NCBI GenBank assembly: GCA_036570545.1
Contig: DATCXZ010000054.1
Coordinates: 1,558 to 65,557, forward strand
DNA: 64,000 nt
Source: Kiloniellaceae bacterium
GTDB lineage: Bacteria > Pseudomonadota > Alphaproteobacteria > Kiloniellales > Kiloniellaceae
Direction of reading: 5' to 3'
In this document: positions 2,637 to 39,401 of the stretch, in pieces
Layout: every line of letters begins with the position of its first letter
Numbering within the stretch: position 1 is the first letter of the stretch
Position numbers and translations under genes: made by a program
Notes under the pieces: generated by a model
Database searches by the model: none
Seen by the model: only the letters and a program-made list of their open reading frames with translations
What the model was told of the DNA's origin: nothing

Positions 2637-2652
2637 TGGCACGCGCCTTGCT
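2637..2652 (+). promoter_or_regulatory. Sigma54 (RpoN) -24/-12 promoter of the PEP-CTERM gene
   Basis: TGGCACG-CGCC-TTGCT matches TGGCACG-N4-TTGCW exactly, 59 bp before ATG 2712. Confidence 0.9.
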
Positions 2653-8569: not shown

Positions 8570-10621
8570 ATGGGACTGATAGTCGGATACATAAGCTACG
8601 CGGCTGCGGCCCTCGCCTACCTGGGGCTTGCGCTCTTCTATCTCTGGCGCGGCGGGTGGGGCGGCCATGGCTTCTATCTGCTCGCCGCGGCCCTGCTGAC
8701 GACGGCCTGGGCCGGTCTGTCGTTCTTCGGCCACGATATCATTCCCGACTATGCCGAAGCAGCCCGGCTGTTGCGACACCTGGCGATGCTCGCCTGGGTC
8801 TGGCTCCTGTGGCACATCGTCGCCTCGCTGGAGCCGCACCAGACGAACTTTCCGCGCCGTCTGCTGCTCGGCTGGGTTGTCATCGTCGGCTCGACGACAG
8901 CGGCGCTCGGCCTCCTCGCGGCGCACAGCCTGATCGGGATCGGCTCGCCGCGGCTGTCCGCCGCCCTGGGACTGGTGATCGCGCTGCTGGGGCTCTCGCT
9001 CACCGAGACGCTCTACCGCAGCTATCAGGCCATCGATCGCTGGGGGATCAAATTCCTCTGCCTCGCAACCGGCGGGCTCTTTGCCTACGACATCTTTCTC
9101 TATGGCGACGGCCTCCTGTTCGGGGCGCTCGATCCGGTGTTCCTCGAGGTGCGCGGCCTCGCCCAGGCAGTGGTGGTTCCCTGCTTCGTCATCAACATCC
9201 AGCGCAGCGAGGCGCGTCACTTCGCTCTTGGCCTGTCGCAGCGCCTGGTGTTCGGCTCGACGGTAATCCTCGGCGCCGGCCTCTACCTGGCGCTCATGGC
9301 GGCGGCCGCCTACTACGTGCGCAGCATCGGCGGCACCTGGGGCAGCGCGGTGCAGACCGTGTTCCTGTTCGCCAGCATCCTGCTGCTCATCGCCTTCCTG
9401 CTCTCGGGCACTTTTCGCTCCTACGTCAAGCATTTCCTGGCGGAGCACCTGCAACAGCAGAAGTTCGACTATCGCCAGGAGTGGCGACGCCTGCTGCAAC
9501 GGATCTCGGCCGGCGACCGGGACGAGCCGCTCGATCTCAGAGTGGTGAAGGCCCTGGCCGACCTGCTGGATAGCCCCGCCGGCGCGCTCTGGTACGTGGA
9601 AGAGAGCAGCCTTGCCCTCGCGACGACCTGGAACCTGCCGGTCTTCAGTCTCGCCGGCAGCGATGCAGCGGCGCTCGCCGACTTCTTCCATGCGCACGAA
9701 GAGGTGGTCGACCTGCGCAACGGCAGCCCAGCCACGGAGCCGACCACCGCCGCGCCGCTCTCCGCCGCCTTGGCCGGCATCGACCAGGCGCGCTTCCTGC
9801 TGCCACTGTTCCACCACGACAGGCTCATGGGCCTGGCGCTCCTCGCCGAGCCTCGGGCGCCGCGGGACGTGGACCGCGAGGATCGCGAGCTGGTGACGAT
9901 GGCGAGCCGGCAGGCCGCAGGCTATCTCTCGGAGCAGCGCGCCGCCCACGCGTTGGCCGAGGCACGGGAGTTCGAAAAGTTCAACCAACGCTATGCTTTC
10001 GTGACTCACGACATGAAGAACCTGGTGAGCCAGCTCTCCCTCATCGTGCGCAACTTCGAGAAGCACGGCGACAGTCCCGACTTCCAACGCGACATGCTGG
10101 CGACGGTCCAGTCCGTCGTGGAGCGCATGAACAATCTGATGGCGCGCCTGTCGGGCGAGCCCGACACCGCCAAGATCGAGAGCGTTGCGATCCGGCCGCT
10201 GATCGAGGCCATCATCGGGGAGAAATGCCTGGCAAACGCCGCCATCATGCTTGACTGCCCGCCCGACCTCAGCGATCTGCGGGTCCGCGCCGACACGCGG
10301 CGGGTCGACGCAATCCTGCGCCACCTCTTCCAAAATGCGATCGAATGCTGCGGCCACGACGGCACAATCGTCGTCGGGCTGCGCCGGGACCACAACGCGG
10401 CGGTCATCGAAGTGCGCGATTCGGGCAAGGGGATGGACCTGGAATTCATCCGCAGCGAGCTGTTCCAACCATTCCGCTCGACCAAGCACGGCGGCATGGG
10501 CATCGGCGCCTTCCAGTGCCGCACCTACGCCCGCGAGCTGGGTGGCGACCTGGAAGCGATCAGCAGCATCGGCGCTGGCACCACCATGCGTGTCACCCTG
10601 CCCGTGTTGCGCGAGGCCTGA
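8570..10621 (+). CDS. prsK: XrtA/PEP-CTERM system histidine kinase PrsK
   Basis: Multi-TM N-terminus, GAF-like middle, H-box THDMKNLVSQL, HATPase motifs (DSGKGM, GMGIGAFQCR). Confidence 0.93.
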   Translation: MGLIVGYISYAAAALAYLGLALFYLWRGGWGGHGFYLLAAALLTTAWAGLSFFGHDIIPDYAEAARLLRHLAMLAWVWLLWHIVASLEPHQTNFPRRLLLGWVVIVGSTTAALGLLAAHSLIGIGSPRLSAALGLVIALLGLSLTETLYRSYQAIDRWGIKFLCLATGGLFAYDIFLYGDGLLFGALDPVFLEVRGLAQAVVVPCFVINIQRSEARHFALGLSQRLVFGSTVILGAGLYLALMAAAAYYVRSIGGTWGSAVQTVFLFASILLLIAFLLSGTFRSYVKHFLAEHLQQQKFDYRQEWRRLLQRISAGDRDEPLDLRVVKALADLLDSPAGALWYVEESSLALATTWNLPVFSLAGSDAAALADFFHAHEEVVDLRNGSPATEPTTAAPLSAALAGIDQARFLLPLFHHDRLMGLALLAEPRAPRDVDREDRELVTMASRQAAGYLSEQRAAHALAEAREFEKFNQRYAFVTHDMKNLVSQLSLIVRNFEKHGDSPDFQRDMLATVQSVVERMNNLMARLSGEPDTAKIESVAIRPLIEAIIGEKCLANAAIMLDCPPDLSDLRVRADTRRVDAILRHLFQNAIECCGHDGTIVVGLRRDHNAAVIEVRDSGKGMDLEFIRSELFQPFRSTKHGGMGIGAFQCRTYARELGGDLEAISSIGAGTTMRVTLPVLREA

Positions 10622-10641
10622 AACTATGCTGATTGAACAGG

Positions 10642-12003
10642 ATGGCTGAGCGAAATCCGCCAAAGCTCCTGCTCGTCGAAGACGACCTCGGCCTCCAGCG
10701 CCAACTGGCCTGGGCTTTCGACGATTTCGAGGTATTCCGAGCCAGCGACCGAGCGAGCGCAGAAGCGGTGCTGAGTCGCGAGCGACCATCGGTCGTCCTG
10801 CTCGATCTCGGCCTGCCGCCGGACGCCGACGGGCCGAGCGAAGGCCTCGCCACCTTGCAGTCCGTGCTGCGCGGCTCGCCCGAAAGCAAGGTCATCATGA
10901 TGAGCGGCCAGACCGAGCGGGATTTCGCGCTAAAGGCGGTGGCCCTCGGCGCCTATGACTTCTACCAGAAGCCCATCGCGCTGGACGAGATTCAGCTCAT
11001 CGTCGGCCGCGCCCAGCGCCTCTTCGAGCTCGAGCAGGAGAACCGCAAGCTGGCGCAGCGTCAGGCCGAGGCACCCCTGCCCGGCGTGGTGACCTCGAAT
11101 CCCGATATGCTGCAGACCTGCCGCGACATCGCCGGCCTGGCGACGACCAACGTCTCGGTCCTCATCGTCGGCGAAAGCGGAACTGGAAAGGAGCTGCTCG
11201 CCCGCGCGCTGCACCAGTTCAGCCCGCGCGCCAAGGGTCCCTTCATCGCGGTCAACTGCGCGGCCATCCCGGAAAACCTGCTGGAGAGCGAGTTCTTCGG
11301 CCATGAGAAGGGGGCCTTCACCGGGGCCATCAAGACCACCGTCGGCAAGGTCGAGCTGGCCAACAAGGGCACCCTCTTCCTCGACGAGATCGGCGACATG
11401 CCGCCGGCGTTGCAGGCCAAGCTATTGCGCTTTCTGCAGGAACGCACCATCGAGCGCGTCGGCGGCCATAAGCCGATTCCGGTCGATATCCGCGTCGTCT
11501 CCGCGACCAACCAGAACCTGCAGGAGCTGATCGAGCATGGCCGCTTCCGGCAGGACCTCTACTACCGCATCAGCGAAGGGGTGGTGGATATCCCACCGCT
11601 GCGGGACCGGCTCGAGGATGCCGCGCTGATCGCCAACAAGCTCGCCCGCGACTATGCCAAGGAACTCAACCGCCCGGTCCGCGGCATAAGCCCGGCAGCG
11701 ATGGCGGCCATCCTCGCCCACACCTGGCCGGGCAACGTGCGCGAGCTGCAGAACTGCATCAAGCGCGCGGTCGCATCGGCGGCGGAGTCGACCATCTTGG
11801 CGCGCGACCTGCGGCTGGGGTCCGATCCGGACACCGTCGATGGGCCGCTGACGCTGAAGCAAGCGCGCTTCCTGGCGGAGAGCAAGGCGCTACGGCAGGC
11901 GCTGGCCATCGCGGCCGGCAATCTTTCCGAGGCGGCACGGGTGCTCGACACCAGCCGCCCGACGCTCTACCACCTCCTCAAGCAGCACGACATCGAGCTG
12001 TGA
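10642..12003 (+). CDS. prsR: PEP-CTERM-box sigma54-dependent response regulator PrsR
   Basis: Receiver ([14 protein letters not shown]), AAA+ ([14 protein letters not shown]), C-terminal Fis-type HTH; follows prsK. Confidence 0.95.
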
Positions 12004-12016
12004 GCGCGCGGCCGAG

Positions 12017-13228
12017 TCAGGCGAGGCGCTGCTCGGCGCTGCCGCGGCGTTGCAGGCAGTCATCGATGAGACGATCGAGCCTCGCCATCGAGCGCGCCCA
12101 GCTGTGGTTCGTCTCGACCCGCGCCCGGCCGGCGTTCGCCAGCGCCCGCCGCGCGGCACCGTCGTCCATCAACCTGAGCAGCTTTTCCGCATAGTCCTCG
12201 GCGGAGCGGGCAACCAGGATGTGCTCGCCGGGCACCGCGTCGACGCCGCCCGCCGCCTGCCAGCTCGCCACCACCGGCACGCCCATCGCCATGCATTCGA
12301 GGATCTTGTTCTGGGTACCGCGCGCGATGGCGAGCGGCGCGACGCTGGCGGCTGCGCGCCTGACAGGGTCGCGCACGTCGGGAACCGTGCCGGTCACGGT
12401 AATGCCAGGGCGCTGGCCGAGGCGCCGGATCGCGCGGGAGGGTTCGGCGCCGATGATGGCGAAGCGCGCCGTCGGCCGGCGTTGGTGGATCAGCGGGAAG
12501 ACTTCGTCGCAGAAGAAGGTCGCCGCCTGCTGGTTGGGGAAGTAGTCCATGCGCCCGACGAAGCAGAGGGAATCCGGATCGTAAGGCTCGTTGCCCGGCG
12601 TGAAGTAGTCGCAGTCGACGCCGTTGGGGAACCAGTCGGAGGGGGTCGGCACCTGGTACTTCCTCAGCGTCTCCAGCTCGGCCCTGGTCGTGCAGGTGCA
12701 GAGGTCGAACTGCCGTGCGAGCGCCTTTTCGGCCGCCTCCATCTTGCTGCCTTCGAGCCAATAGCCGAGCGATAGCGGGAACGGCTTGAAGCGCCGGTAG
12801 ACCAGCCATTTCTGCGAATCCATGTCGCCGAAGTCGAGGATCTTCGGAATGCCCCTGACCCCGGCAACGTAGGGCGCCACCGAGGAGCAGTGCGCCAGGA
12901 TGAGGTCGAAGCTCTCCTGCCGCAGGCGCTCGCGCAGGCGCCGCGCGAGCTCGGGGGCGTAGAAGTATCCCATGGAAGAGGGTCCCGGCGTCGGCAGCCG
13001 CGCGATCATCCGCCCCCAGGCACCCGCCGCATTCACCCGGCCCATCATGAAGTCGGCGCAGTGGTCGGCGATGCCGCGGCCGGCCGCGGCCTCTGCCGCC
13101 GAGCGCGCCAGCGAGGCGACCACCACCTCGTGCTTGCGGGCGAGGTGCCGGATCATGTTGAACGGCCGGATCTTGCCGCCGCGCGCGGGCGGGTAGGGAA
13201 AGCGATGGCAGACGAAGAGAATTCTCAT
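12017..13228 (-). CDS. XrtA-system GT4 glycosyltransferase (TIGR03087-like)
   Basis: MRILFVCHRFPYPPARGGKIRPFNM, DMDSQKW, GTQNKILECMAMG. ATG overlaps the asnB stop (ATGA). Confidence 0.88.
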   Translation of the reverse strand: MRILFVCHRFPYPPARGGKIRPFNMIRHLARKHEVVVASLARSAAEAAAGRGIADHCADFMMGRVNAAGAWGRMIARLPTPGPSSMGYFYAPELARRLRERLRQESFDLILAHCSSVAPYVAGVRGIPKILDFGDMDSQKWLVYRRFKPFPLSLGYWLEGSKMEAAEKALARQFDLCTCTTRAELETLRKYQVPTPSDWFPNGVDCDYFTPGNEPYDPDSLCFVGRMDYFPNQQAATFFCDEVFPLIHQRRPTARFAIIGAEPSRAIRRLGQRPGITVTGTVPDVRDPVRRAAASVAPLAIARGTQNKILECMAMGVPVVASWQAAGGVDAVPGEHILVARSAEDYAEKLLRLMDDGAARRALANAGRARVETNHSWARSMARLDRLIDDCLQRRGSAEQRLA

Positions 13229-20296: not shown

Positions 20297-21472
20297 TCAC
20301 ACTCTGGGGCGGTTCGCGAAGCCGAGCCCCAGGAAGCGCCAGGCGTCGTCGCGGTTGAAGACCTCCACCCACGGCGTGTCGAGAATACCTCGGCGATGGG
20401 CGAGCTGGTTCACCGTGAGGTCGTAATGCCAGTTTCCTTCCAAGAGGAGCGGCCCACTGTCGGTAAGCGCGACGTCCCAGCCGAGGCTCTTCTGCACCGC
20501 GAAGACCCGGGCCGCCGCCTGAACCAGATCCCGCACCTGATCCCAATCCGGCAGCGCCATCCCGGTCATGCGCGTGCCGGTCAGCGGATGATCATCCACG
20601 TACTGCGGTAGGTTGTTCACCAGGATTGTCCCGCGTCCGCAGAGGCCGGTCTCGACGTCGACCGGCACCACGATGCCGCCCTGCGCCAGGTTGTCGGCCG
20701 GCCCCTTGCCGCCGCCGACCCTGAGGGCAGCCCCCACGACCACCGGCTCCGGCCGCAGGTGCGTGACGACGCGCACCGTGTGAAGCACGTCGGGCATGAC
20801 GGCGGCGAGGATCGGATGCGACCGCAGCCGCGGTTCGATGAGCACGCCGCCGTTGTGGAAATAGCGCCCACAGTGCCGCCAGATGGCGGCCAGATCGATC
20901 TCCTCCCCTCCCGGCAACGTCCGCCAAGCGAGCCCCTGGGGCGCCCGGCTGCCCAGGCTCAGCACGCCCCAGCCCTTGGTTCCGGCAACCGGCTTCAGCA
21001 CGACATCGGCGATCTCGTTCGCTTCCATCCAGCTTCGCAGCGCCCCTTCCGAGCGGATCGTGAGGAACGGGCCCGCAGACTGGTCCTGCGTGACGACGGC
21101 CAGGGTCTTCGACACCGGCAAGCCCGCCTTCGTGGCCACCTCGTTGAACTCGAGCTTGCGATCGACGAGGTGGTGATGCTCAGCCGGATTGAACGCGCAG
21201 AAGACGCGCCAGCTCTGAAAACGGCCTATGTAGGAGCGCTTCATCTCCATCGGCAGCCGAGGGTCAGACAGCCCGAGGTTATAGTAGTCCACCCCCCCGA
21301 TCCGGTTGCTCCAGAGCAGGCGCTGCTGCTCGATAAAGCGCCGCAGGACGGACGTCGGCATTTCGCGATGGCGCCTGTGGCAGCGGAAGTCTTCGACAGC
21401 CTGGGCAGGAATCGCCCGTAATCGCCAAACGACCTTCGCGAGATCTTTCGCGGACACCTTGCCTCCCTGCAT
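20297..21472 (-). CDS. Sugar-transfer-associated ATP-grasp protein 2
   Basis: VDRKLEF, VLKPVAGTKGWGV, LIEPRL..HP, LHTVRVVT, ADNLAQGGI, GWDVALTDSGPLLLEGN. Confidence 0.82.
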   Translation of the reverse strand: MQGGKVSAKDLAKVVWRLRAIPAQAVEDFRCHRRHREMPTSVLRRFIEQQRLLWSNRIGGVDYYNLGLSDPRLPMEMKRSYIGRFQSWRVFCAFNPAEHHHLVDRKLEFNEVATKAGLPVSKTLAVVTQDQSAGPFLTIRSEGALRSWMEANEIADVVLKPVAGTKGWGVLSLGSRAPQGLAWRTLPGGEEIDLAAIWRHCGRYFHNGGVLIEPRLRSHPILAAVMPDVLHTVRVVTHLRPEPVVVGAALRVGGGKGPADNLAQGGIVVPVDVETGLCGRGTILVNNLPQYVDDHPLTGTRMTGMALPDWDQVRDLVQAAARVFAVQKSLGWDVALTDSGPLLLEGNWHYDLTVNQLAHRRGILDTPWVEVFNRDDAWRFLGLGFANRPRV

Positions 21473-21723
21473 TCAGCTTGTTGTGGGGCTTATCGAAGAT
21501 TTCCGCTTCATTTTCCAGCTATGGCGCGGGCGCGCTAGAGTGTCCTTTTCGGCATGCGACCATCATGCCCGATGCTCGGTATTATGATAATTTCGATAGC
21601 CTGTGCCTTTGGGCTCACCCGCAAAGGCGGCTGATCTCTCGCAGCAAGTTCTCGTAAGTCAGCACAGGCAGGCGATCCGCCTTGAGGACCTCTAGCGCCG
21701 GGAGACGGGGCCGAGGCGAGGCA

Positions 21724-24321
21724 TCAGGCGGGGTTGGGTATCAACTGCTCCGATATGACCAGGTTGCGATACCACACGAAGAAAGGCGGATGCTCCTCGC
21801 GCGGGTTCTTTTCATAAAGATGCGGCATGAGCCATATCTTGCCGACCCTGTTCTCGGGGCTTACCGGCGAGGAGGCGTAGAAATCGTTGTCGATCACGAG
21901 CCTCTGCCGGCCGCCGTGCTCGCCTTCGATGGCGCCCCAGATGCTCACATGGCTGAGCCGGGGATCGCCCTTTTTCGCGTCCGCCTGCCAGGGCCCGAAG
22001 CGCAGCCGGATCTGGATCGTGATCCACTTGTCGTCGATCAGGCGGAAGCAGTTCTCCGCCAGATTGTTCCAGTCTCTCCTGCTTCCGTTCGCGAGTATCC
22101 TCGGGCAAGCGTACAGACCATTGGGCTGGCTGTTGCTATGAAGCTGACCACCAATGCGCCCGATGCGCTTGCCGAAGCCCATCGGCCGTGGGCAGCGGTG
22201 ATAGGCGTGAAGCGCATGATTCGCACTATGATTGATGGCGGTTTCCAGGCGCATGCAGGAGTCGGCGCGGACGCCGCGGCGGTCGCCGGTCGAGATCAGC
22301 GCAATCTTGGAGCCGGTGCAGCCTCCCTTGCCGTTGGTATCCTTGAAGCAGCGCCGCTCCTTGCGATAGTTCGGGCTGTTGGGATCGCAATCGGTCCAGA
22401 TGAAGGTGCAGGAATAGCGCACCTGGAACTGGATGTAGACCTCCTGCGCCGCCGCGTCCGGGCCGACCTGGAAGGCATAGTCGGGGCTGAAGTTGGTTTT
22501 GAAGTTGCCGGCCGCTCCTGACCCGGTATTGGAGGGGAAAGTGAAGCGCAGGCCGCCGATCTCGGGATCCGCCTGCGCCAGCTTCGCCTGGGGATGGTTG
22601 AACTTCTGGCTGACGTTGCGCCAACTCCCGTCGCGCTGGGGCGGCCCGCTCGCGACCACCTTGGCATGGTAGAGCACCTCGCCTTCGCCCATCGGATCGC
22701 AGAGCACTGCGGTCGCGCAAACGCGCCGCCAGTCGGCGCTCTCGGCGATCTCGAGGGGAATGACCTTCTCGCCGTCGTGCGGCGCGCGCGCCTTGGGTGC
22801 GCCAGCCGGCGCCGGCGCCGGCGGCTGTTGCGGACTGTCGGCCGCCACGGTGTGCAAGACGGCCGGGGCCGGCGCGGCGGCGGAGCGGTCCAGACGGTAG
22901 AGCACGAAGCCGAGATCGACATTGGTAATGCCGAAGAAGGCATCGACCTCAGGCACATAGCGCCACTTGGAATAGACCTTTCCCGGGCGCTTCGCGTCGC
23001 GCATAGCCCGCGCCGCTTCCCCTTTCGGCTCGGCTTCCCGGATGGCGCCGGTCGCCGGATCGACGATGAGGACGCGCGCATGGCCATCCCAGAGCACCAG
23101 CAGCCCCGAGGCATGCTGGGCCAGCCCCCAGGCCTTCATTCCCGCCTTCGGCCACTCGGCGACGAGCCGCGCGTCGAAGCCCTCGGTCTGGCCCGGAAGC
23201 GGCCAGGTGTAGGCGACCAGGCGGTCCTTGGCGCCTCCCCCGATGATCGTGTAGAGGATGCCCGCTCGCTGATCGAAGACGGCAGGGCCGTCGATGAACC
23301 TGCCATAGGGATCGCGGTCAAAGGAGCGGACCACGGAGCGGGTCTGCGGATCGATCTCGTGCCAGCCCTGCTCTCGCCCGACGTGGAGGATCACGTTGCC
23401 GCTGCGCCGGTCGACCACGGCGCGCGTGAAGCGCGCGTAGCCATCGAGCGCCGGCATGGGCTGCCAAGTTCTGCTGTGGGCGTCGTACTCCCAGGCCGAG
23501 GAGCCACCCATGCCGGCGCTGCAGTACTCGACGGTGCCGAACAGCCAGTAGCGATCGATCTTCGGCACGTAGAGGAAGCCCTGGTAGGTGTGGGTTGCCG
23601 GCGGCCCCACGGCGGGGGCCGGACAGGCATCCTTCTCGCCGTCGCCGTCGCTGTCGTCCAGATAGGGCCCCGTCAGCGGCTGGGGATCGGTCTCGCGCGT
23701 CCAGGTCAGCGTCTCGAAATCGAAGGCGTAGACCTCGTTGCCGCCGTAGTCGGCATGGCCGCCGCCATGCACACGGAATTCGCCTCGCGCGTGGTCGAAA
23801 GCGCCTCCATTCCAGGCGCCGATCACGTTCGGCGCACGGTGGCACTTGATCTCGCGGCAAAAGTCAAACTCGCCCTCGCGCACCAGGTGCGGCCGCAGGG
23901 CGCTCCCTGGCAGGACGGCGAACTCGCCCGGCTGCGGGAGCAGCGCCGCGAGACGCTTCCACACCGCGTTCTGGGTGCGCACGGACTGCGACGGAGCGGC
24001 GGCAGGCGCCGTCGGCCGTTCGTTTGATAGAGCCTGCGAATTATGAAAACTATCGGCCCGAACCGGCTGTGCTGCAGCAGGGACGGCCCCGCCGCCGGCG
24101 TCGCCGGCCGGCGTGATCCTGGTGCCCGGGATATAGCTCGGTGCCGGCGGCAGCCCAAGGAATTCGCGCGGACCCTCCGCCTGCGCCCGCGTTGCCCCGA
24201 TCAGGCTCAGCACCGATAGCGCCGCGGCAAGCAGCGCCACAGAGAGTGCGATCGCGCGCCTCGGCTCCGCTATGGGCGGCAGCGCCGCCCCGCGCCTGTC
24301 AGTGTCGACATTCAGGATCAT
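21724..24321 (-). CDS. Large secreted protein (865 aa): Kelch-like propeller plus Cys-rich, possibly lyase-like beta-sandwich C-terminal domain
   Basis: ATG 24321; signal peptide ending RAQA|E; AWNGGAFD..GGGHADYGGNEVYAFD..W repeats; Pro/Ala linkers; C-terminal VYIQFQVRY..KWITIQI..GKIWL..WYRNLVIS. The 5' extension of the called ORF lies antisense to the sulfotransferase and is treated as spurious. Confidence 0.7.
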   Translation of the reverse strand: MILNVDTDRRGAALPPIAEPRRAIALSVALLAAALSVLSLIGATRAQAEGPREFLGLPPAPSYIPGTRITPAGDAGGGAVPAAAQPVRADSFHNSQALSNERPTAPAAAPSQSVRTQNAVWKRLAALLPQPGEFAVLPGSALRPHLVREGEFDFCREIKCHRAPNVIGAWNGGAFDHARGEFRVHGGGHADYGGNEVYAFDFETLTWTRETDPQPLTGPYLDDSDGDGEKDACPAPAVGPPATHTYQGFLYVPKIDRYWLFGTVEYCSAGMGGSSAWEYDAHSRTWQPMPALDGYARFTRAVVDRRSGNVILHVGREQGWHEIDPQTRSVVRSFDRDPYGRFIDGPAVFDQRAGILYTIIGGGAKDRLVAYTWPLPGQTEGFDARLVAEWPKAGMKAWGLAQHASGLLVLWDGHARVLIVDPATGAIREAEPKGEAARAMRDAKRPGKVYSKWRYVPEVDAFFGITNVDLGFVLYRLDRSAAAPAPAVLHTVAADSPQQPPAPAPAGAPKARAPHDGEKVIPLEIAESADWRRVCATAVLCDPMGEGEVLYHAKVVASGPPQRDGSWRNVSQKFNHPQAKLAQADPEIGGLRFTFPSNTGSGAAGNFKTNFSPDYAFQVGPDAAAQEVYIQFQVRYSCTFIWTDCDPNSPNYRKERRCFKDTNGKGGCTGSKIALISTGDRRGVRADSCMRLETAINHSANHALHAYHRCPRPMGFGKRIGRIGGQLHSNSQPNGLYACPRILANGSRRDWNNLAENCFRLIDDKWITIQIRLRFGPWQADAKKGDPRLSHVSIWGAIEGEHGGRQRLVIDNDFYASSPVSPENRVGKIWLMPHLYEKNPREEHPPFFVWYRNLVISEQLIPNPA

Positions 24322-24453
24322 ACCATGCCAAGCTGGCCGTTCCTCCAGAGGAGACCAGATACCACGGTGGCTTGCAACTGCGTCCCCTGTAACTTCGGTG
24401 AGCATGCCGCAGAGGCTTCCTTGCGCCGTAGCGGGCGGGCCTCGGGCTAGTCT

Positions 24454-25422
24454 ATGGCGGCACTGCACGCCGTGCGCAGCGCGTTGCGGGATGCCGTCCG
24501 CGCCGGCCTGGCTCCCGTCGAGCGGCTGGCGTTGCGCCTGGGCGACCCGCTCCCCTACGCCCCCATCTTCATCGTCTCGCCGCCGCGTTCCGGGTCGACG
24601 CTGCTCTACCTGCTCGCCGTCCAAAAATATCGTCTCAGCTACTTCTCCAACTTCGCGATGGCCTGCCCGGCGAGCCCGGCGCTCCTGACCCTGCTCGGCG
24701 CCCCTTTCGGCGCTTGCGCCGGGGGCGCCTCCCTCGACAACAGCTTTGGCGAGACGCCAGGCTGGAACGGGCCGAACCAGGGCTATCGCGCCTGGAACCG
24801 ATGGTTTCCCACCGACCGGGACTTCGTCCCTCCCGGCGAGCTGTCGGCGCGCGCGCGCGACGCGCTGCGGCGGACCATCGGCCTGTTGGAAAAAGCAGGC
24901 GGCGCGCCCTTCATCAACAAGTGGCAACGGAACGCCACACGCGCGCAGGCCCTGCACGACATCTTGCCTGAAGCGGTGTTTCTGCACCTGCGGCGCAACG
25001 GTCTGCTGACGACGCAGTCCGTCCTGCTGGCACGGCGGAAGCTGCTGACCGACCCAGACGACTGGTTCTCCGCCAAGCCACGGCGCTACGTGCCGGAGCG
25101 CGGCAAGAGCCAGCTCCAGTTCGCCGCCGAGCAGGTCGCCCTGCTGGAACGGGACCTCGAGGAGGACAAGGCCGCGATCGGAAGGGAGCGCTTCTTCGAG
25201 CTCGACTACGAGGATCTGTGCCGCGATGCCGATGGCGCCCTCGAGGCTTTCGCGGACTGGTACGCCGCCCGCACCTCGACCCGGCTGCGCGAACGGAAGA
25301 AGCTGAACCTCCGCCTGGCGGAAAGCCAGGAGATCCGCATCACAGCGGGAGAGATCGCGCAGATCGAGGTGATCCGTAGCGCCCTTGCGGAGCCACGCCT
25401 TCGCTCCTCATCGCAGGCCTAG
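24454..25422 (+). CDS. Sulfotransferase family protein 1
   Basis: 5'-PSB loop PIFIVSPPRSGSTLL, FINKW, FLHLRR, LDYEDLC. Confidence 0.85.
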   Translation: MAALHAVRSALRDAVRAGLAPVERLALRLGDPLPYAPIFIVSPPRSGSTLLYLLAVQKYRLSYFSNFAMACPASPALLTLLGAPFGACAGGASLDNSFGETPGWNGPNQGYRAWNRWFPTDRDFVPPGELSARARDALRRTIGLLEKAGGAPFINKWQRNATRAQALHDILPEAVFLHLRRNGLLTTQSVLLARRKLLTDPDDWFSAKPRRYVPERGKSQLQFAAEQVALLERDLEEDKAAIGRERFFELDYEDLCRDADGALEAFADWYAARTSTRLRERKKLNLRLAESQEIRITAGEIAQIEVIRSALAEPRLRSSSQA

Positions 25423-30934: not shown

Positions 30935-32272
30935 ATGCGTGACGTCCTCATCCTCCTGCTGGCCTTCTCGGTGGTCCCGCTGACCTTCCTGCGACCGCAC
31001 GTCGGCATTCTCGCCTGGTGCTGGATCTCCTACATGAACCCGCACCGGCTGAGCTGGGGCTTCGCGTACGAATTTCCCGTCGCGATGATGATTGGCCTGT
31101 CGACGCTGGCGGCCTGGGTTCTATCCAAGGAGCCCAAGAAGCTGCCGATCAACGCCGTCAGCGCCCTGATGCTCGCCTTCGTCGTCTGGATGTCCTTCGC
31201 CAACCTCTTCGCCATGGTTCCCGACCTTGCGTTCGAGAAGTGGACGCAGTCGGTCAAGATCCTTCTGATGACCTTCGTCACCATGGCGCTGATGTACAAG
31301 CGAGAGCGCCTGCAGGCGTTGATCTGGATTATTGTGGTCTCGCTGGGATACTTCGGCGCGAAGGGTGGGCTTTTCACCATTGTCGGCGGCGGCACCTCCC
31401 ATGTCTGGGGGCCTCCCGGAAGCTTCATCGCCGACAACAACGCACTCGCGATGGCCCTGGTGATGGTGCTGCCGCTGGTGCGCTACTTGCAGATCCAGAC
31501 TGAATCCAAGCTGATTCGCTTGGGCCTCTACGGGCTGATGATCCTCATTGGCTTCTCCATCATCGGAAGCCAGTCGCGCGGCGCCTTCCTCGGTGGCTGC
31601 ACGATAGCCGCATTCCTGATCTGGAAATCGCGCCAGCGCTTGCTGCTGTCGCTGCTCGTGGTCGCCTTCCTGGCGGTCGGCGCCTTCTTCGTACCGCAGA
31701 GCTGGATCGATCGCATGCAGACGATCGAAACCTATCAGGAGGACGGCTCCGCCCTTTCGCGGCTCGAGGTCTGGGGTTTCGCGCTGAAGCTCACCAAGGA
31801 CAGGCCGATCGTGGGCGGCGGCTTTCGGGTCTCCTATAACGACGCCATCTATCTGAAATACGTCCCCGACGCACGAACGGGGCGCGGGCGCAACTATCAC
31901 AGCGTCTACTTCGAGATCCTCGGCGAACTGGGCTACGTCGGGCTGGCCATCTACCTCGCTCTACTGTTCGCGGTGTGGCGCATGGGCAGCCGCACCATCA
32001 CTCTGACCGCACAGCGCCCCGATCTGCACTGGGCCGGCGACCTGGCGCGCATGTGCCAGGTTTCCCTGATCGGCTTTGCCGTTGCCGGCGCCTTCCAGAA
32101 TCTCGCGTTCTTCGATCTCTACTTCCATCTCATCGCGATCGTGTTCCTGGCGCACCAAGCTGTCATCACGGTGCTCACCGAGGAGGGCTCTATCCCTCAC
32201 CCCTCTGGCGCCAGGCGCCGCTCACCGGCCTTGCCGGGCGCCCCCGTCCCCACGCGCGCCGCCGGCCCCTGA
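30935..32272 (+). CDS. Putative O-glycosylation ligase, exosortase A system-associated (TIGR03097-like)
   Basis: MRD..LLL, WISYMNPHRLSWGFA, GPPGSFIADNN, SQSRGAFL, RNYHSVYFEILGELGYVG, GAFQNLAFFDLY. Confidence 0.9.
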   Translation: MRDVLILLLAFSVVPLTFLRPHVGILAWCWISYMNPHRLSWGFAYEFPVAMMIGLSTLAAWVLSKEPKKLPINAVSALMLAFVVWMSFANLFAMVPDLAFEKWTQSVKILLMTFVTMALMYKRERLQALIWIIVVSLGYFGAKGGLFTIVGGGTSHVWGPPGSFIADNNALAMALVMVLPLVRYLQIQTESKLIRLGLYGLMILIGFSIIGSQSRGAFLGGCTIAAFLIWKSRQRLLLSLLVVAFLAVGAFFVPQSWIDRMQTIETYQEDGSALSRLEVWGFALKLTKDRPIVGGGFRVSYNDAIYLKYVPDARTGRGRNYHSVYFEILGELGYVGLAIYLALLFAVWRMGSRTITLTAQRPDLHWAGDLARMCQVSLIGFAVAGAFQNLAFFDLYFHLIAIVFLAHQAVITVLTEEGSIPHPSGARRRSPALPGAPVPTRAAGP

Positions 32273-33454
32273 TCGGCCTCCACCGGCCAATGCGAGTTCC
32301 TTCCTGTTGGCATCGATGGTGAACTTTGCCGCCCAGTTCAGGTACTCGAAGGCGCCGTAGTCGCCGTCGACGGGAAAGGCGCCCTTGACCCCACCGCTCG
32401 TATCGGGCGCCCCGCCGATATGGATCGTGCAGCGGACGTAAGCATTGGCCTTGCGGCCGGCCTCCAGGTAGCTCCTCTCGCCGGTCACCTCGAAGAGATA
32501 GAACCAGCTCTCGGCGATCTGCGAGAGACCGGTCAGGCAGACCCAGCCAACGGCCGGCGTCCAGTCGGCGGAGAGGCGCCCGGGCAGCGAACCGTCGGCG
32601 CGCTGGACGGCGAGCAAGCCATCGGCGGTTCGCTTGGCTGCCGCCAGAAGGCGCGGCGCGCCGGACAGGCGGTGCGCCTCCACCACGCCACGCAGGAAAT
32701 AGCCGAGGGTGTGCGTCAGCGGCCGGGAGGCGTCGCTGAGGCAGCAGTCGGCGACCCAGCCGTTCGCCCGCTGCCTGCCGAGCGCCCAGTCGACCTGGCG
32801 CAACCCCGCCTCGCCGTAGCCCTCGCCCGGCGCCAGGCGTTCCGCCTCGAAGAGGCCCCAGGACACATGGGTCTCGTAGGCCTTCTCGCCGGCCACGGCA
32901 AAGGGCGTCGGGTGACGCCGCCAGCAGCCATCGGCATCCAGCGAATCGCGCAGAAAACGCGCTGCCGCGTGCAGGTTCTCGTGGTAGTCGCCGAACGCCC
33001 GCGCGCCGGCGCAGAAGCCGAGCAGAACCTGTCCGGTGTTGAAGGTGACCGGCACTTTCACGGTGGCATCGATCTTGCCGCCCTGAATGCCACCATCGCT
33101 GAACTGGATCGCCGCGAGCCAGTCCAGCATCCGGCGCGTCCGCGCGAGGAGGTCGCGCTCAGGATGGTCGGCCGCTGCCGCAATGAAGGTCGGGACGATG
33201 TAGCCGGTGGTCTCCGGATAGGAAGTAGCCCAGCCGCGCAGCAGACTGAAGTCGCGCGCGACGCCGCCGTCGCCGCTGGCCGAGCAGTCCTGCGCGCGGG
33301 CGAGCCACTGCAGGCAGGCATCGACTACCGCTGCAGGCCCGGGATCGCGCTGCGGCAGCCCTTGGCGGTCGCGCGCGCGCTCCTCGACGGCCGCCCTCGG
33401 CAGGCGGCGGGCAGCAACGGCGTTCTTCAGGGCCCTCAACACCGACATGGACAA
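32222..33454 (-). CDS. (alpha/alpha)-barrel protein of EPS loci, function unknown
   Basis: WATSYPETTGYI, LDWL..IQ..DGG, FNTGQV, THTLGYFLRG, YLNWAAKF; repeated W/Q..DG helical-hairpin signature. The 3' end overlaps the O-ligase gene by 51 bp. Confidence 0.7.
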   Translation of the reverse strand: MSMSVLRALKNAVAARRLPRAAVEERARDRQGLPQRDPGPAAVVDACLQWLARAQDCSASGDGGVARDFSLLRGWATSYPETTGYIVPTFIAAAADHPERDLLARTRRMLDWLAAIQFSDGGIQGGKIDATVKVPVTFNTGQVLLGFCAGARAFGDYHENLHAAARFLRDSLDADGCWRRHPTPFAVAGEKAYETHVSWGLFEAERLAPGEGYGEAGLRQVDWALGRQRANGWVADCCLSDASRPLTHTLGYFLRGVVEAHRLSGAPRLLAAAKRTADGLLAVQRADGSLPGRLSADWTPAVGWVCLTGLSQIAESWFYLFEVTGERSYLEAGRKANAYVRCTIHIGGAPDTSGGVKGAFPVDGDYGAFEYLNWAAKFTIDANRKELALAGGGRSGAGGARGDGGARQGR

Positions 33455-35139: not shown

Positions 35140-36215
35140 GAGCTCCCCTCCCGCGAGCGGCCGGCCTGCCGCTCGAGCAGGGAGCGCTGCCGCAATCCCA
35201 GGCGCCTGCGAAGTCGGCGGGACCGCCCCCCTTGATCGAGGTGATACCACAGATCGAGAGCATAGGCCGATGCGGTCTTCGGAACCCTGTCGTAAGCCTC
35301 GTAGCCCCAGTCCTTCAGCGTCTGGCCCGCGATCCCCTCGAACACGATGCGCTGGCTGCCGGTCATGCGCCGGCGCCACTGGCCGACTTTGGACTCCTGC
35401 GGCGGGCGCGAGATCGCCGGCCACAGCCAGCGCCGGTTGTCCGGTATCTTCTCTTCCACCATCTCCCCGTAGCACAGCATGCGGTCGTCGTAAGGCAGGC
35501 TGAGGAAGGCGCAGAGCCGCTCCAGCGTCGCGCCGGTACCGAGGACGAGGTCCTCGAAGCGCACGGTCATGTAGCGCGCAGCGCCAAGGATCCGCCCCAT
35601 CTTGGCGTTGGTGGTCGTGCGGTTGACCCAGGCGCGGGCGCATTCCGCGATGTTCCCCGCGCCGTAGGGCATGGTCTGATGCGACAGCGCCACATCGCGG
35701 CCGTCGCGAATGATGTGGAGAAAGCGGGCCTGCGGGAACCAGCTATTCACCAGGTCCATGTGGTCGAGCGTTGCGATGTCGACGTTGGCCCAGCACGGCT
35801 TGCCCTTGGCCTCGGCATAGGCCGCATGGAAGCGCGCGACCACTGCGCCGTAGTCGCCGACCGGCAGGCCGGCCAGCAGCTCCATACGGTCGAGCGCGGC
35901 ATCCCACAACCGGATGCGCTCGTGCGCGAGGATGGCATCGACCAGGCGGACGACATCGTCTCCGGTGGCGAGGCCGTTGAAGTCCCGAGGCAGGCGCCGG
36001 GCGAAGTCGGTCCACATGCCGGTGGTCGCCAGCGGCACGGCCACCAGCGGATGGGCACCGATGATCATCGACAGCAGGGTCGTGCCGCTACGCTCCATCC
36101 CGAAGAGGAAGGTGGGCGTCGCCGTCGCTGCGACGCCGGGCGCCACACGCCCTGGCGCCGGCTGCGGCGGCGGCGGAGTGTCGGCGGATCGACCGGGGAA
36201 AGCTGCAGCGGTCAT
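35136..36215 (-). CDS. Sulfotransferase family protein 3
   Basis: FLFGMERSGTTLL, HIIRDGRDV, VRFEDLV. ATG 36215 overlaps the heparinase-like gene stop. Confidence 0.88.
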   Translation of the reverse strand: MTAAAFPGRSADTPPPPQPAPGRVAPGVAATATPTFLFGMERSGTTLLSMIIGAHPLVAVPLATTGMWTDFARRLPRDFNGLATGDDVVRLVDAILAHERIRLWDAALDRMELLAGLPVGDYGAVVARFHAAYAEAKGKPCWANVDIATLDHMDLVNSWFPQARFLHIIRDGRDVALSHQTMPYGAGNIAECARAWVNRTTTNAKMGRILGAARYMTVRFEDLVLGTGATLERLCAFLSLPYDDRMLCYGEMVEEKIPDNRRWLWPAISRPPQESKVGQWRRRMTGSQRIVFEGIAGQTLKDWGYEAYDRVPKTASAYALDLWYHLDQGGRSRRLRRRLGLRQRSLLERQAGRSREGSS

Positions 36216-38563
36216 GTCGGGCGCTGTCCCTGCCCGGGCGGTTCCCAAAGCCCGCAGAGGCCGTCCTCGTCGGCATAGCCCGCCACCTGCCGCCAGCCGG
36301 CCGCCGGCCGCAGCGGCTCCGCTGCCGAGAGGGCGACGTCGAGGTTCACGCAGGCCAGGCTCCGCAGCCCGAGAGCGCCGATCCGGCGGCAATGGTCGCC
36401 GGAGAACTCGAGCCACAGGGCGTCGCCGTCGAACTCCAGATCCAGCACACGGGACGGCAGGGCACCGGAAAAGCCACCGAAGACGGCGACGATGTCGATG
36501 CCTTGGTGGCGGACCACCACGGCGGTGCCTTCGGCTACCGCCTCTGCCGCCACCTTCGGAAGATTATCATCCTCGGCGAGACCGATGGCGAAGGCCAGGG
36601 CGCGCGCTTCGGGCTGCAGCCGGCAGATGATCTGCGGCGCCGCCTCCAGTTCTCCGTAGCGGCGGGAGAGCCAGCCTGCGCCGGGAGACGGCGAGCCTGA
36701 GGCACAGTCCATCGCGGCGACGCCCTCGGAAGCACAGAGATAGGCCGAGACCCCGCCGAGATCTGCCGTCACCTGCCGCGCCGCGCGCCGCGCCACCACA
36801 GCTTCCGGCGCGAGCTGCCAATGGCACGCCACCTCCGCGTCGCACGGCAAGCCGGGCGGGCGATCGTAGACGAGCGTCGGCCATCCCGCGACCCGCAGCA
36901 CCCCGCGCCGCCAGCCATTCAGGCCGCCGGCCTCCTCCAACCGGCCTTCGGCCCAGATGGCCGTTCCCTCGAAGCTGCGCCAGCGGGTGGTCACGCGCGC
37001 ACCGGCCTCGCTGCCGCGAAAGCGTCCCAGCGCCACGCCGAGAGGGTCGTGCCCGCGCAACACCGGGCCGTTGTGGGCGGCGGGGCTGCGGAAATAGCGC
37101 CGCGGGCTGTCCGGGCCACCGCGCGGCGGCGGCGCGATGGCCGCATAGGAGTAGGTGCCGGCAGGCTCCAGCACGCGCCGCCCCTGCGCGGTCCAATAGA
37201 CCGACAGCAGATCGGACATGGTGTGGCCCGGATGCACCGCGGAGCCCGGTGCCGGGCCGCCGCGGAACAGGAGGCAGTCGTCCCTGTCGTCGTCGCGGAA
37301 GGCGACGTAGCCGCCGAGGGGAAAGGCGGCGACATTCCCGACCGGCTCCAGCGCGCGCGGCAGCCGCAGTGGAAGGCTTATCGAGCGCAGCGCAGCCAGT
37401 AGCCAATACGCCCGTTCCGCGCCGGCTGCCGTCGCCGCCGTCTCTGGGAACGCAGGTTCGAACAGCGCGCTATAGAGGATCCGCCAGCCGCCCGCGCCGC
37501 CGGCGTCGAGCGGCAGCAGGGGATCGTCGGTGCTGTCACCCAGCGCAAAGCCGGAGCCGTTCCGCGTCGCCAGGGTCGCCTGAAACCGCAGGGCGCAGCC
37601 GATCCGCGTCAGCGCCTCGGCGTCCGGGGACTCGCCGCGCCGCAGTGCTATAACGACGTAGGCGAGAGCCAGCTCGCAGCCCAGTTCATGATAATGCAGG
37701 GACTGCTCGAAGTTCGTGCCGTCGGCCTGGAACTGCCGGGCGAACTCCGCAAGCCACGCCCGCTCCGCCGCCGCGAGGTCGCCCGCCTCCGGGACCAGCT
37801 CAGGATAGCAGGCGGCGAGGAACCAGGCGGCGAAGCGGTCGGCGAGCAGGTGATTGTTGCCGACGGACCGGCCGAGCCGCGGCAGCAGGTAGCGACAGTC
37901 GGCCGCGACGATGCGAAAGAGTTGAAGGCAGACTTCGGCCGCCGTCCTGTCGCCCTGCTCCGCCTTGGCGACAAGGAAGGGCATCGCCCAGGCGATCGCG
38001 ACCTGCCGATGGATCATGACCAGGTTCGAGAAATAGGCATCTTCGGCGAGACCTGCCGTCTCGACCTGGCGGATCCAGCGCGCGAGCGCCCGCTGCAGCG
38101 CCGGCAGGCACTCGGCACCGAGGCAGGACGCCATCGCCAGGCGCGGCAGGAAGCCGAAACGGTGAGGGCGCAGACGATAGAGCCGGTCATCGTGGACGTC
38201 CATCGGCAGGACCGACCAGTCGAGGTCGCCAAGCGGCGGCGCCATCCCCGCATAGACCGGGAGCCCCTGCGTGCAAACGCACGCGGCCTCCTCGAGCAGA
38301 GCCCGGCGCCATCCCGGCCTGTTGTCGTCATAATCCGCAACCGCCGCCTGCGCCTCATCAGCCGTCAGGAAGCCCGCCCCCGCAGGGCGCGCGCGAAAGA
38401 ACTGCACGGCCAGCGCCGCATCGGAGGTGGCGGCGCTTGCGCGCAGGGCCGCCCGCAGCAGATCCAGCCGACCGAGACCCGGTGGCGGAGTAGCGGGCGG
38501 ACGCGGCATCGAGCGTCTCATAGAGCGCCCAAATCCACTTAGATAATCCAGCGCGAGTTTCAT
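36212..38563 (-). CDS. Heparinase II/III-family protein
   Basis: GNNHLLAD, DGTNFEQSLHYH, GHTMSDLLS, EPAGTYSY, RSPAAHN. ATG 38563. Confidence 0.8.
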   Translation of the reverse strand: MKLALDYLSGFGRSMRRSMPRPPATPPPGLGRLDLLRAALRASAATSDAALAVQFFRARPAGAGFLTADEAQAAVADYDDNRPGWRRALLEEAACVCTQGLPVYAGMAPPLGDLDWSVLPMDVHDDRLYRLRPHRFGFLPRLAMASCLGAECLPALQRALARWIRQVETAGLAEDAYFSNLVMIHRQVAIAWAMPFLVAKAEQGDRTAAEVCLQLFRIVAADCRYLLPRLGRSVGNNHLLADRFAAWFLAACYPELVPEAGDLAAAERAWLAEFARQFQADGTNFEQSLHYHELGCELALAYVVIALRRGESPDAEALTRIGCALRFQATLATRNGSGFALGDSTDDPLLPLDAGGAGGWRILYSALFEPAFPETAATAAGAERAYWLLAALRSISLPLRLPRALEPVGNVAAFPLGGYVAFRDDDRDDCLLFRGGPAPGSAVHPGHTMSDLLSVYWTAQGRRVLEPAGTYSYAAIAPPPRGGPDSPRRYFRSPAAHNGPVLRGHDPLGVALGRFRGSEAGARVTTRWRSFEGTAIWAEGRLEEAGGLNGWRRGVLRVAGWPTLVYDRPPGLPCDAEVACHWQLAPEAVVARRAARQVTADLGGVSAYLCASEGVAAMDCASGSPSPGAGWLSRRYGELEAAPQIICRLQPEARALAFAIGLAEDDNLPKVAAEAVAEGTAVVVRHQGIDIVAVFGGFSGALPSRVLDLEFDGDALWLEFSGDHCRRIGALGLRSLACVNLDVALSAAEPLRPAAGWRQVAGYADEDGLCGLWEPPGQGQRPT

Positions 38564-38716
38564 AATTCGACGGGCCAAGCCATAGCCCCTGACAGTGAAC
38601 CCCTTCCGTCCGTCAGCGCAACATGGGACGCAGGTCCCACGCAATGCCGCAAGGATTCCAAGGGCCCGAGACGGCGGTTTGCCGCGAAAGGCAGGCTGTG
38701 CTATGCGGTATTGACT

Positions 38717-39274
38717 ATGATCCGCTGCAGCATTGGATTGATTATCATCTGCATGCTGTTCGGCAGGCCGTCGCTGGCTGCCGATCTGCCGCTGCCGCGC
38801 ACACCGATCTACGATTCGCACTCCCAGAGCTATTTCCAGCTCTTTGGCGACAATGTGCATCCGGGCAACTGGGAAGCCGCGCGCATCAGGGCGGCCCAGA
38901 AGTTCTACAAGGGGGTGCAGGGCCGCCTGGCCGTCGTCGACAGTGCGGAGACTCACGCCTTTCTGCTGCGGGCCTTCAAGCTCAACCGCCGCCACATCAG
39001 CGTGTGGATCGGCCTGCGGTACTGGTGCTCGGCGCGGTTGCTGCAGTGGGAAGACGGCCTGCCCTTTGCGCCGTCGGAGCCGGATCACTTCCGGCATTGG
39101 CATGCGAACTGGTCGCGCACGGACCAAGATGCCTGCTCCTTCTCCAAGTCCTCGAAAGTCGGCTTCGCGCCGGTCTACTACCGCACCATAGCGGGCCAGG
39201 CGCGCTGGCAGGCAGTCGGCGCGGCGAAGTATTTCGACTACTATCTCGTCGAATTTCCGACCGGCGGAGAGTGA
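38717..39274 (+). CDS. Secreted C-type lectin-like domain protein
   Basis: Signal peptide (PSLA|A), SYFQLF, WEAA, GRLAVVDS..H.FL, VWIGL, W.DG, YLVEF: the CTLD pattern. Confidence 0.7.
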   Translation: MIRCSIGLIIICMLFGRPSLAADLPLPRTPIYDSHSQSYFQLFGDNVHPGNWEAARIRAAQKFYKGVQGRLAVVDSAETHAFLLRAFKLNRRHISVWIGLRYWCSARLLQWEDGLPFAPSEPDHFRHWHANWSRTDQDACSFSKSSKVGFAPVYYRTIAGQARWQAVGAAKYFDYYLVEFPTGGE

Positions 39275-39401
39275 CGCCGGCACCGCCGTTGCAAAGCGAA
39301 GAAAAGCTTTGACCCCTCAAGGAGATCCTGCAACCTAGTTCCTCCTGGCCGCGCTGGCTGTTGATGAGCCATTGCAGGCACATTCGGGGAGACTGGGCCT
39401 G

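Follow-up and report, generated by a model that had tools for sequence, protein, structure and literature searches.

A secreted Kelch-propeller and jelly-roll protein of XrtA/PEP-CTERM exopolysaccharide loci, a candidate lyase-type enzyme from a large unannotated family

The 64,000-nucleotide stretch of Kiloniellaceae DNA analyzed here (contig DATCXZ010000054.1, positions 1,558 to 65,557; hereafter the window) is, by its gene content, an XrtA/PEP-CTERM exopolysaccharide (EPS) locus. At its positions 21724-24321 lies a gene that encodes a real, conserved secreted protein, composed of a Kelch-type propeller and a cysteine-rich jelly-roll. This protein is an accessory component of the XrtA/PEP-CTERM EPS system, as established by its residence within such loci and its co-occurrence with exosortase A. 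We delimit a large unannotated family around its jelly-roll domain, which is tied to exosortase EPS systems and recurrently paired with a specific Kelch propeller. The gene lies outside every described family, although both the class of its fold and the role presumed for it are known ones. With respect to function, we favor an extracytoplasmic lyase-type enzyme that processes the acidic EPS of its own locus, with the propeller serving as partner module. This reading leads the alternatives at what we judge to be somewhat less than an even chance.

A secreted two-domain protein

The coding sequence is intact and its codon-position GC pattern, including the GC bias at third positions, matches that of genuine genes in this genome of 66% GC. 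The open frame extends to 24987 and a start at the alternative in-frame ATG (24405) would lengthen the product by 28 residues, which leaves the start codon unsettled; position 24405 is the sole plausible alternative because a divergent sulfotransferase gene starts at 24454. Its own genome has one copy of the gene. Public data contain approximately 25 full-length homologues that are 57-66% identical to its product and two that are 30% identical, all of them named “hypothetical protein” and devoid of a Pfam domain, including one from Pelagibius marinus. As these homologues are conserved, the open reading frame is not a product of chance. A scan of 21300-24600 for sigma-70 promoters and terminators found none. 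Control by sigma-54 was considered and rejected, given that no -24/-12 site lies upstream of the gene. The features of the gene and its product are as follows.

21724..24321 (-), whole coding sequence; stop-free translation of 865 residues, then a TGA stop
24178..24321 (-), N-terminal signal peptide, residues 1-48; read by eye from the sequence
23968..24177 (-), Pro/Ala/Gly-rich linker 1, residues 49-118; 34% Pro+Ala
24109..24156 (-), conserved peptide GLPPAPSYIPGTRITP, residues 56-71; directly after the signal peptide in the alignment
22888..23967 (-), six-bladed Kelch-like beta-propeller, residues 119-478; from the AlphaFold2 (AF2) model and Foldseek
23620..23655 (-), DSDGDGEKDACP loop, residues 223-234; inserted before blade 2
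22747..22887 (-), Pro/Ala-rich linker 2, residues 479-525; 49% Pro+Ala
21727..22746 (-), C-terminal Cys-rich beta-jelly-roll, residues 526-865; approximately 340 residues, basic, pI 9.2
22048..22410 (-), Cys-rich segment within the jelly-roll, residues 638-758; eight of its ten Cys and the near-invariant K672, D680, Y707 and Q732

A first-pass annotation, made from the DNA alone, had described this product as an unannotatable secreted protein of two domains. That description is correct. The whole protein has nothing above threshold in Pfam or NCBIfam; its best Pfam match is Kelch_4 at 18.5 bits against a cut-off of 21.6, NCBIfam returned nothing at all, and a PDB sequence search with the single protein gave no meaningful match. 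Each of the features listed in that annotation is also present in the intact frame, namely the motifs DSDGDG (at residue 223), YIQFQVRY (629), GSKIALI (670), KWITIQI (765) and WYRNLVIS (850), a long signal peptide, two Pro/Ala linkers, and exactly ten Cys in the C-terminal domain.

The N-terminus, RRAIALSVALLAAALSVLSLIGATRAQA followed by EG, resembles a long cleavable signal peptide when judged by eye. It has an Arg-containing n-region, a hydrophobic core of 21 residues, and the cleavage motif AQA before E, and A-x-A cleavage sites are kept among the aligned homologues. Linker 1 is hypervariable among homologues in both length and sequence, and linker 2 is likewise hypervariable. In contrast to the linker that flanks it, the peptide GLPPAPSYIPGTRITP is nearly unchanged even in the two homologues of 30% identity (P0028, P0029); it may serve in docking, sorting or modification. 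The protein itself was rejected as an exosortase substrate, since it ends in ...LVISEQLIPNPA, carries no PEP motif, and has no match to PF07589.

The earlier observation of Kelch-like repeats is borne out by structure prediction. Modeling of residues 112-482 in AF2 with a 22-sequence alignment gave a propeller with a predicted local distance difference test score (pLDDT) of 88.9 and a predicted template modeling score (pTM) of 0.89. Its DSSP strand pattern corresponds to six four-stranded blades, closed by an N-terminal strand. Foldseek matched the model to the Kelch domains of KLHL17, KLHL3, Keap1, LZTR1 and MKLN1 and to six-bladed lactonases, with template modeling (TM) scores of 0.45-0.63; the Kelch domains were among the top matches (0.55-0.63, normalized on the target). 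By sequence, the Kelch_4 match falls below the Pfam gathering threshold and a propeller profile reached Kelch proteins in the PDB at sub-threshold E-values of 0.08-0.3. The propeller has an invariant GGGHADYGGNEVY motif in repeat 1, and the N-terminal domain contains four Cys. The DSDGDGEKDACP loop is the lowest-confidence part of the model (block mean pLDDT 68) and presumably resembles a thrombospondin type-3 repeat or DxDxDG calcium-binding loop. The domain shares with KLHL/Keap1 and MKLN1 a six-bladed propeller and the GG...Y...W repeat signature, but differs in being bacterial, secreted and stabilized by disulfides, in its inserted DxDxDG/Cys loop, and in Pfam Kelch scores that stay under threshold. 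We class it as a secreted, divergent propeller of the Kelch type.

A jelly-roll family of exosortase-type loci

To delimit the family of the C-terminal domain, its profile was searched against 1.84 billion representative proteins and the matches were counted as clusters at 50% identity. The family comprises 674 clusters at E <= 1e-3, or 359 at E <= 1e-10, and every one of the 674 bears the label “hypothetical”. Among 99 close profile matches, none is functionally named and none has a Pfam domain in the region of the C-terminal domain. Architectures were counted in the top 147 family representatives. The domain stands alone in 57 of them, which are proteins of at most 450 residues; those inspected have signal-like N-terminal sequences. 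A further 35 also carry the target-type propeller, which precedes the jelly-roll in 31 and follows it in four. In the remaining members, the domain is combined with PKD, fn3, Big, beta-helix/NosD, dockerin or subtilase modules. There is also a relative (P0032) in which the propeller is followed by a beta-helix in place of the jelly-roll.

The jelly-roll is better conserved than the propeller, with a mean column identity of 70% versus 63%. Conservation was counted residue by residue over 125 family members. W766 is present in all of them (125/125), followed by K672 (123/125), Q732 (119/125), T768 (118/125), R635 (117/125), Y851 (116/125), Y707 (115/125), D680 (114/125), K838 (114/125), K828 (112/125) and H844 (104/125). 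Of the ten Cys (positions 535, 541, 638, 645, 658, 668, 689, 710, 739 and 758), those at 689, 710, 739 and 758 are near-invariant. On the modeled strands, conserved polar residues alternate with hydrophobic ones (Q631-x-Q/R633-x-R635, T768-x-Q770, K828-x-W830), which would place the conserved polar residues on one exposed sheet face, in the manner of a binding cleft. The residue types R, K, Y, Q and H are those used by jelly-roll lyases.

The window provides the genomic context for this family. Its locus encodes a PEP-CTERM protein, PrsT, PrsK, PrsR, GT4 glycosyltransferases, AsnB, a UDP-sugar dehydrogenase, a MurF-like ligase, four ATP-grasp ligases, three sulfotransferases, a methyltransferase, a deacetylase, a TIGR03097 Wzy_C-type ligase/polymerase, a GH127-like barrel, a heparinase II/III-like protein, WecB, Wzx, a chain-length determinant, a tyrosine kinase, a priming glycosyltransferase, and an exporter. 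The NCBIfam models TIGR02917, TIGR03007, TIGR03018, TIGR03013, TIGR03027 and TIGR03097 are all matched within it. The gene was always located in XrtA/PEP-CTERM EPS loci with genes for uronic-acid synthesis, accompanied in the clade of the window by sulfotransferase genes. The polymer made by the locus contains uronic acid and is probably sulfated.

The gene is flanked by sulfotransferase and ATP-grasp genes, as are its orthologues in P. marinus, in metagenome-assembled genomes of Kiloniellaceae and in metagenomic contigs. The homologue P0029 lies in a syntenic block and adjoins a TIGR03097-like gene. On two unrelated contigs, one of which is L022, stand-alone jelly-roll genes of canonical XrtA loci occur directly downstream of the XrtA-associated ATPase, amid genes for FemAB-like proteins, GT4 glycosyltransferases and AsnB. 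Two loci with other gene arrangements and the exosortase A gene of the target’s own genome are listed here.

L022, 8001-10621, split version; a jelly-roll protein of 365 residues and a separate, adjacent fn3+Kelch protein of 486 residues, after a TIGR03015 XrtA-associated ATPase
L020, 8630-11677 (+), paralogue of 1015 residues in genome G001; N-terminal Ig-like region, jelly-roll, (TSGTTSTTSG)n linker, propeller
C240 (a contig of the target’s own genome other than the window’s), 11335-12105, exosortase A (TIGR03109, 290 bits)

The fn3+Kelch protein of the split version has a weak N-terminal match to the LptM signal/mature-peptide model, which hints at a lipoprotein signal. Genome G001, from another family of the same order, encodes two paralogues with the reversed order of jelly-roll, linker and propeller; a Thr/Ser-rich linker replaces the Pro/Ala linkers. 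One of the two adjoins genes for UGDH, AsnB and a GT4 glycosyltransferase, and the second is located elsewhere in the genome.

The distribution of the domain is patchy, at seven of 127 genomes of the order and three of 401 sampled genomes of the class. Exosortase A is encoded by eight of nine genomes with the domain compared to three of 12 without it (Fisher p 0.008, uncorrected for phylogeny), and four genomes carry the two genes on one contig, 12-40 kb apart. Given that related genomes carry exosortase A 35-40 kb from the target gene on one contig, the locus probably continues beyond the window. The association with the locus glycan proposed in the first-pass annotation is therefore strongly supported by conserved synteny and by exosortase A co-occurrence. 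A literature search combining PEP-CTERM with Kelch and lyase returned nothing relevant.

Relationship to polysaccharide lyases and proposed function

Fold comparison places the C-terminal domain in the vicinity of the beta-jelly-roll polysaccharide lyases. Residues 518-865 were modeled in AF2 from an alignment of 19 sequences. The best Foldseek matches of the model in the PDB are the PL14 lyases of Aplysia (AkAly30, 5GMT, E 1.9e-7) and Chlorella virus (vAL-1, 3A0N), with the PL36 lyase Aly36B (6KCW), the X122 domain, the PL13 heparin lyase I (3INA) and a PL7 glucuronan lyase (7NDE) also among the top matches. All 50 PDB matches listed are jelly-roll or ConA-like proteins, as expected of a two-sheet sandwich of the Concanavalin A-like lectin/glucanase superfamily. 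In the viral library, the top accessions look chloroviral, one being a named Chlorella virus protein (A7J6W7, PBCV FR483), and are followed by phage ConA-like proteins. Chloroviruses encode PL14 enzymes. The sandwich strands at the core of the model have pLDDT values of about 65-85. On this basis, the predicted jelly-roll/ConA-like fold is credible and the preference for lyases over lectins in the model’s ranking is suggestive.

Profile comparison provides a second link to PL14. Aligned by hhalign to a single protein of the PL14 family PF21294, which is encoded next to a stand-alone jelly-roll member, the C-terminal domain family gave an E-value of 0.002. When 126 family domains were aligned to 120 PF21294 domains, the E-value was 2.9e-4 with a probability of 40% over 85 columns; nine control alignments, either reversed or column-shuffled, gave E-values of at least 0.12. 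The aligned strands contain W-x-T-x-Q, G-K-x-W-L-x-P-Y, H and W-Y-D. Across the entire domain, a greedy alignment stays colinear and, at low confidence, places R635 opposite the Arg of the PL14 “YYLRL” strand and K672 opposite the Lys of “GGKLPG”. Near-invariant K672 and Y707 follow the same order as the catalytic Lys and Tyr of PL14, in a region where the alignment is unreliable; the catalytic residues of AkAly30 are K99/S126/R128/Y140/Y142. The only Pfam family to recur, weakly, in scans of family members is PF14099 (Polysacc_lyase; two of 39 members, E 0.03).

The target domain, in its predicted fold and its weak profile match, has in common with PL14 a beta-jelly-roll, a W...Q strand, a W-x-x-x-Y-H-type strand, a conserved His and Asp before the final strand and, in the low-confidence alignment, a Lys after a G-G/W motif with a Tyr some 35 residues further on. 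PL14 enzymes act on uronic-acid polymers and the target would do so too. Unlike PL14, the target domain has an extra segment of approximately 120 residues with four or five disulfides, is encoded in a biosynthetic EPS locus, and is fused to a Kelch propeller. The domain is probably related to PL14-type domains at a distance, without being a member of PL14. The lyases of PL36, PL13, PL7 and PL20 are of the same fold class with similar Foldseek E-values, but have no sequence-level match to the target and TM-scores of 0.24-0.46. By eye, the strand motifs Q-x-R-x-R, T-x-Q and Y/V-G-K-x-W of the target resemble the R-x-E-x-R, Q-x-H and Y-F-K-A-G motifs of PL7. A GH16-type hydrolase was also considered and rejected; the E-x-D-x-x-E motif is absent from the C-terminal domain and there is no Pfam GH16 match.

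We consider a lyase to be the best-supported reading because the protein combines an exported, basic, disulfide-rich jelly-roll of enzyme-like conservation with lyase fold matches, a weak PL14 link, and obligate residence in EPS loci of this kind. The pI of 9.2 suits an anionic substrate. In the mechanism that we propose, the protein would be exported to the periplasm or the exterior as an accessory of the exosortase-A EPS locus of a Pelagibius-like marine alphaproteobacterium. Catalysis would reside in the jelly-roll, whose nearest kin among the beta-jelly-roll polysaccharide lyases would be PL14. An anionic uronic-acid polymer, probably sulfated, would be bound along a putative cleft formed by Q631/R635, K672, Y707, Q732, T768/Q770 and K828, and would be cleaved, or edited at C5, through beta-elimination-type chemistry. 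As a result, chain length would be trimmed or the polymer released after Wzx/Wzy-type export. The Kelch propeller would be a dedicated partner and may hold the enzyme in place on the polymer or some other locus component. The domain architecture, the size of the family, its synteny, its co-occurrence with XrtA and its conserved residues are observed, whereas catalysis by the jelly-roll, the residues that act, the substrate and the part played by the propeller are inferred.

Secreted or periplasmic depolymerases are commonly encoded within the cluster of their own substrate in other systems, for example ExoK (a GH16 jelly-roll) and ExsH of the Sinorhizobium succinoglycan cluster, AlgL of alginate, PslG, and PelA. 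Such self-glycanases and lyases set chain length or clear misdirected polymer. We propose these enzymes as functional analogues of the target; their families are unrelated to it, and ExoK is a hydrolase with the E-x-D-x-x-E motif that the target lacks. None of the five is known to have a Kelch propeller or an exosortase link.

Several observations weigh against a lyase. The C-terminal model is of low confidence overall (mean pLDDT 53, pTM 0.66), with the Cys-rich stretch at domain residues 121-241 below a pLDDT of 50, and its TM-scores to the PDB matches are low at 0.24-0.46 (0.3-0.46 for the lyases, 0.34-0.46 for PL14). Legume lectins and the Hc binding domains of clostridial neurotoxins score nearly as well as the lyases. 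The hhalign probability is just 40% and the alignment is confident over the last four strands only, which exclude the catalytic-residue region of PL14. The S-x-R and Y-x-Y motifs of PL14, visible by eye in Planctomycete PL14 sequences, are unrecognizable in the family. Neither the target protein nor 39 family members reach the PF21294 threshold, and Pfam and NCBIfam scans of those 39 and five stand-alone members found nothing above threshold. PDB sequence searches with three profiles likewise gave no match for the C-terminal domain. A PF14099 profile, small and poor in being built from eight domain segments of 12 proteobacterial proteins, aligned to the family with an E-value of 0.097 and a probability of 0.6%. 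The window’s own clade deviates from the family consensus at R633Q, Y834H, T836Y and D852R, substitutions that could signify altered or lost activity. In addition, the heparinase II/III-like protein of the locus (36212-39283) could already cover the lyase role. Finally, the X122 domain of Teredinibacter turnerae (8Q28/8Q29), which is a top Foldseek match and resembles the target in having a lyase- or lectin-like jelly-roll within secreted multidomain proteins, was assayed with neither activity nor binding detected (PMC10916295); it has no sequence similarity to the target, and its partner domains and genomic context differ.

The predictions of the first-pass annotation must be read in this light. 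Its comparison of the C-terminal domain to jelly-roll lyases holds at the level of fold, and the Foldseek search it recommended did place PL14, PL36, PL13 and PL7 on top, from a poor model with low TM-scores and lectins close behind. The wider claim of a carbohydrate-active enzyme gains the fold and a PL14 profile match that is weak yet above controls, and is held back by the limited hhalign probability and the missing PL14 motifs. Likewise, the proposal that the protein trims or releases the locus glycan stands as the leading hypothesis with its locus link supported, while its enzymatic part is unproven.

The same observations bear on the main competing explanation, in which the protein is a non-catalytic glycan-binding or matrix protein. 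Its lectin-like jelly-roll would bind the anionic EPS, its propeller would bind a second ligand, and the two would cross-link or anchor the matrix. We regard this as less likely than a lyase, yet as the strongest of the alternatives. The lectins and neurotoxin binding domains that rank just under the lyases share the jelly-roll fold, the related-fold X122 lacks detectable enzyme activity (PMC10916295), and the PL14 catalytic motifs are unrecognizable. Long flexible Pro/Ala linkers and a basic C-terminal domain would suit tethering, and Kelch propellers are typically interaction modules. However, a domain of 300-350 residues with some 12 near-invariant charged or polar residues, K672 foremost, is more enzyme-like than a carbohydrate-binding module. 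Many members are secreted and consist of this domain alone, lyases come first in both fold libraries, and the sole sequence-level link is to PL14 domains.

It is improbable, in our assessment, that the protein modifies the polymer without cleaving it, as a uronate C5-epimerase-like enzyme or transglycosylase that edits the EPS after export in the way that AlgG edits alginate. The structural and sequence evidence for this explanation is the same as for a lyase, and lyases and C5-epimerases have a common first chemical step. It is further favored by the conservation of the gene as a component of a biosynthetic rather than catabolic locus, where the separate heparinase II/III-like protein could supply lyase activity. 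Against it, no C5-epimerase is known to have a beta-jelly-roll fold, and the present data do not separate epimerization from elimination.

There is an equally slim chance that the propeller is the catalyst, as a metal-dependent lactonase-, esterase- or oxidase-like domain to which the jelly-roll would target substrate in a galactose-oxidase-like arrangement, where a sugar-binding sandwich accompanies a Kelch propeller. Its invariant GGGH-x-D-Y-G-G-N-E, R209 and H244 are kept even in relatives without the jelly-roll, the six-bladed lactonases SMP30, Drp35 and RPA3624 rank beside Kelch domains in the fold search, and relatives with the jelly-roll-then-propeller order exist; but the conserved motif is the ordinary Kelch signature (a GG doublet, then Y, then W), no propeller enzyme family is matched by sequence, and the jelly-roll is the more conserved half and often occurs alone. 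What probability these four explanations leave is assigned to something else.

Other features of the window and wider significance

Five further features of the window were recorded, three of which have counterparts in a distant syntenic locus (L001).

2637-2652 (+), perfect sigma-54 -24/-12 element TGGCACGCGCCTTGCT; approximately 60 bp upstream of the PEP-CTERM gene at 2712-3713
39278-39293 (+), one-mismatch sigma-54-like site CGGCACCGCCGTTGCA; approximately 80 bp upstream of the start of the wecB-flippase operon at 39372
36212-39283 (-), heparinase II/III-like protein; 53% identical to its L001 counterpart
32222-33454 (-), GH127-like (alpha/alpha)6 barrel; 75% identical to its L001 counterpart
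38711-39274 (+), small secreted protein; 60% identical in L001

The element at 2637-2652 is the only zero-mismatch sigma-54 site in the 64 kb and fits control of PEP-CTERM genes by PrsK/PrsR (8570-12003). The site at 39278-39293 may have arisen by chance, since two-mismatch matches occur in the window at chance level. While the target homologue in L001 is only about 30% identical, the heparinase-like and GH127-like proteins are far more constrained; one of these two could be the real lyase or epimerase of the locus. The counterpart of the small secreted protein in another homologous locus has a weak match to the Pfam family Lectin_C, which suggests that a C-type-lectin-like gene is a conserved neighbor of the heparinase-like gene.

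Among environmental and wastewater bacteria, many owe their flocs and biofilms to XrtA/PEP-CTERM loci. A bolder interpretation of the target, which we consider unlikely, is that the jelly-roll and an obligate Kelch partner form a previously unrecognized core module of exosortase-type EPS systems, acting as an extracytoplasmic polymer-editing enzyme of a new family rather than as a scavenging depolymerase. That family would be one of lyases new to CAZy, or else of C5-epimerases or transglycosylases with a jelly-roll, and its task would be to shape the floc-forming polysaccharide, or to attach it, once exported.

The 674-cluster family, which has no coverage in Pfam, NCBIfam or the PDB, is systematically embedded in XrtA/PEP-CTERM loci and has a particular Kelch propeller as its partner. 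Should the jelly-roll be a lyase, it would establish a new CAZy family whose natural substrate is a sulfated, uronic-acid-containing marine EPS, and would provide a tool to tailor glycosaminoglycan-like polymers. If it is non-catalytic, it would be a candidate matrix organizer. Either way, the jelly-roll family merits a name and a structure.

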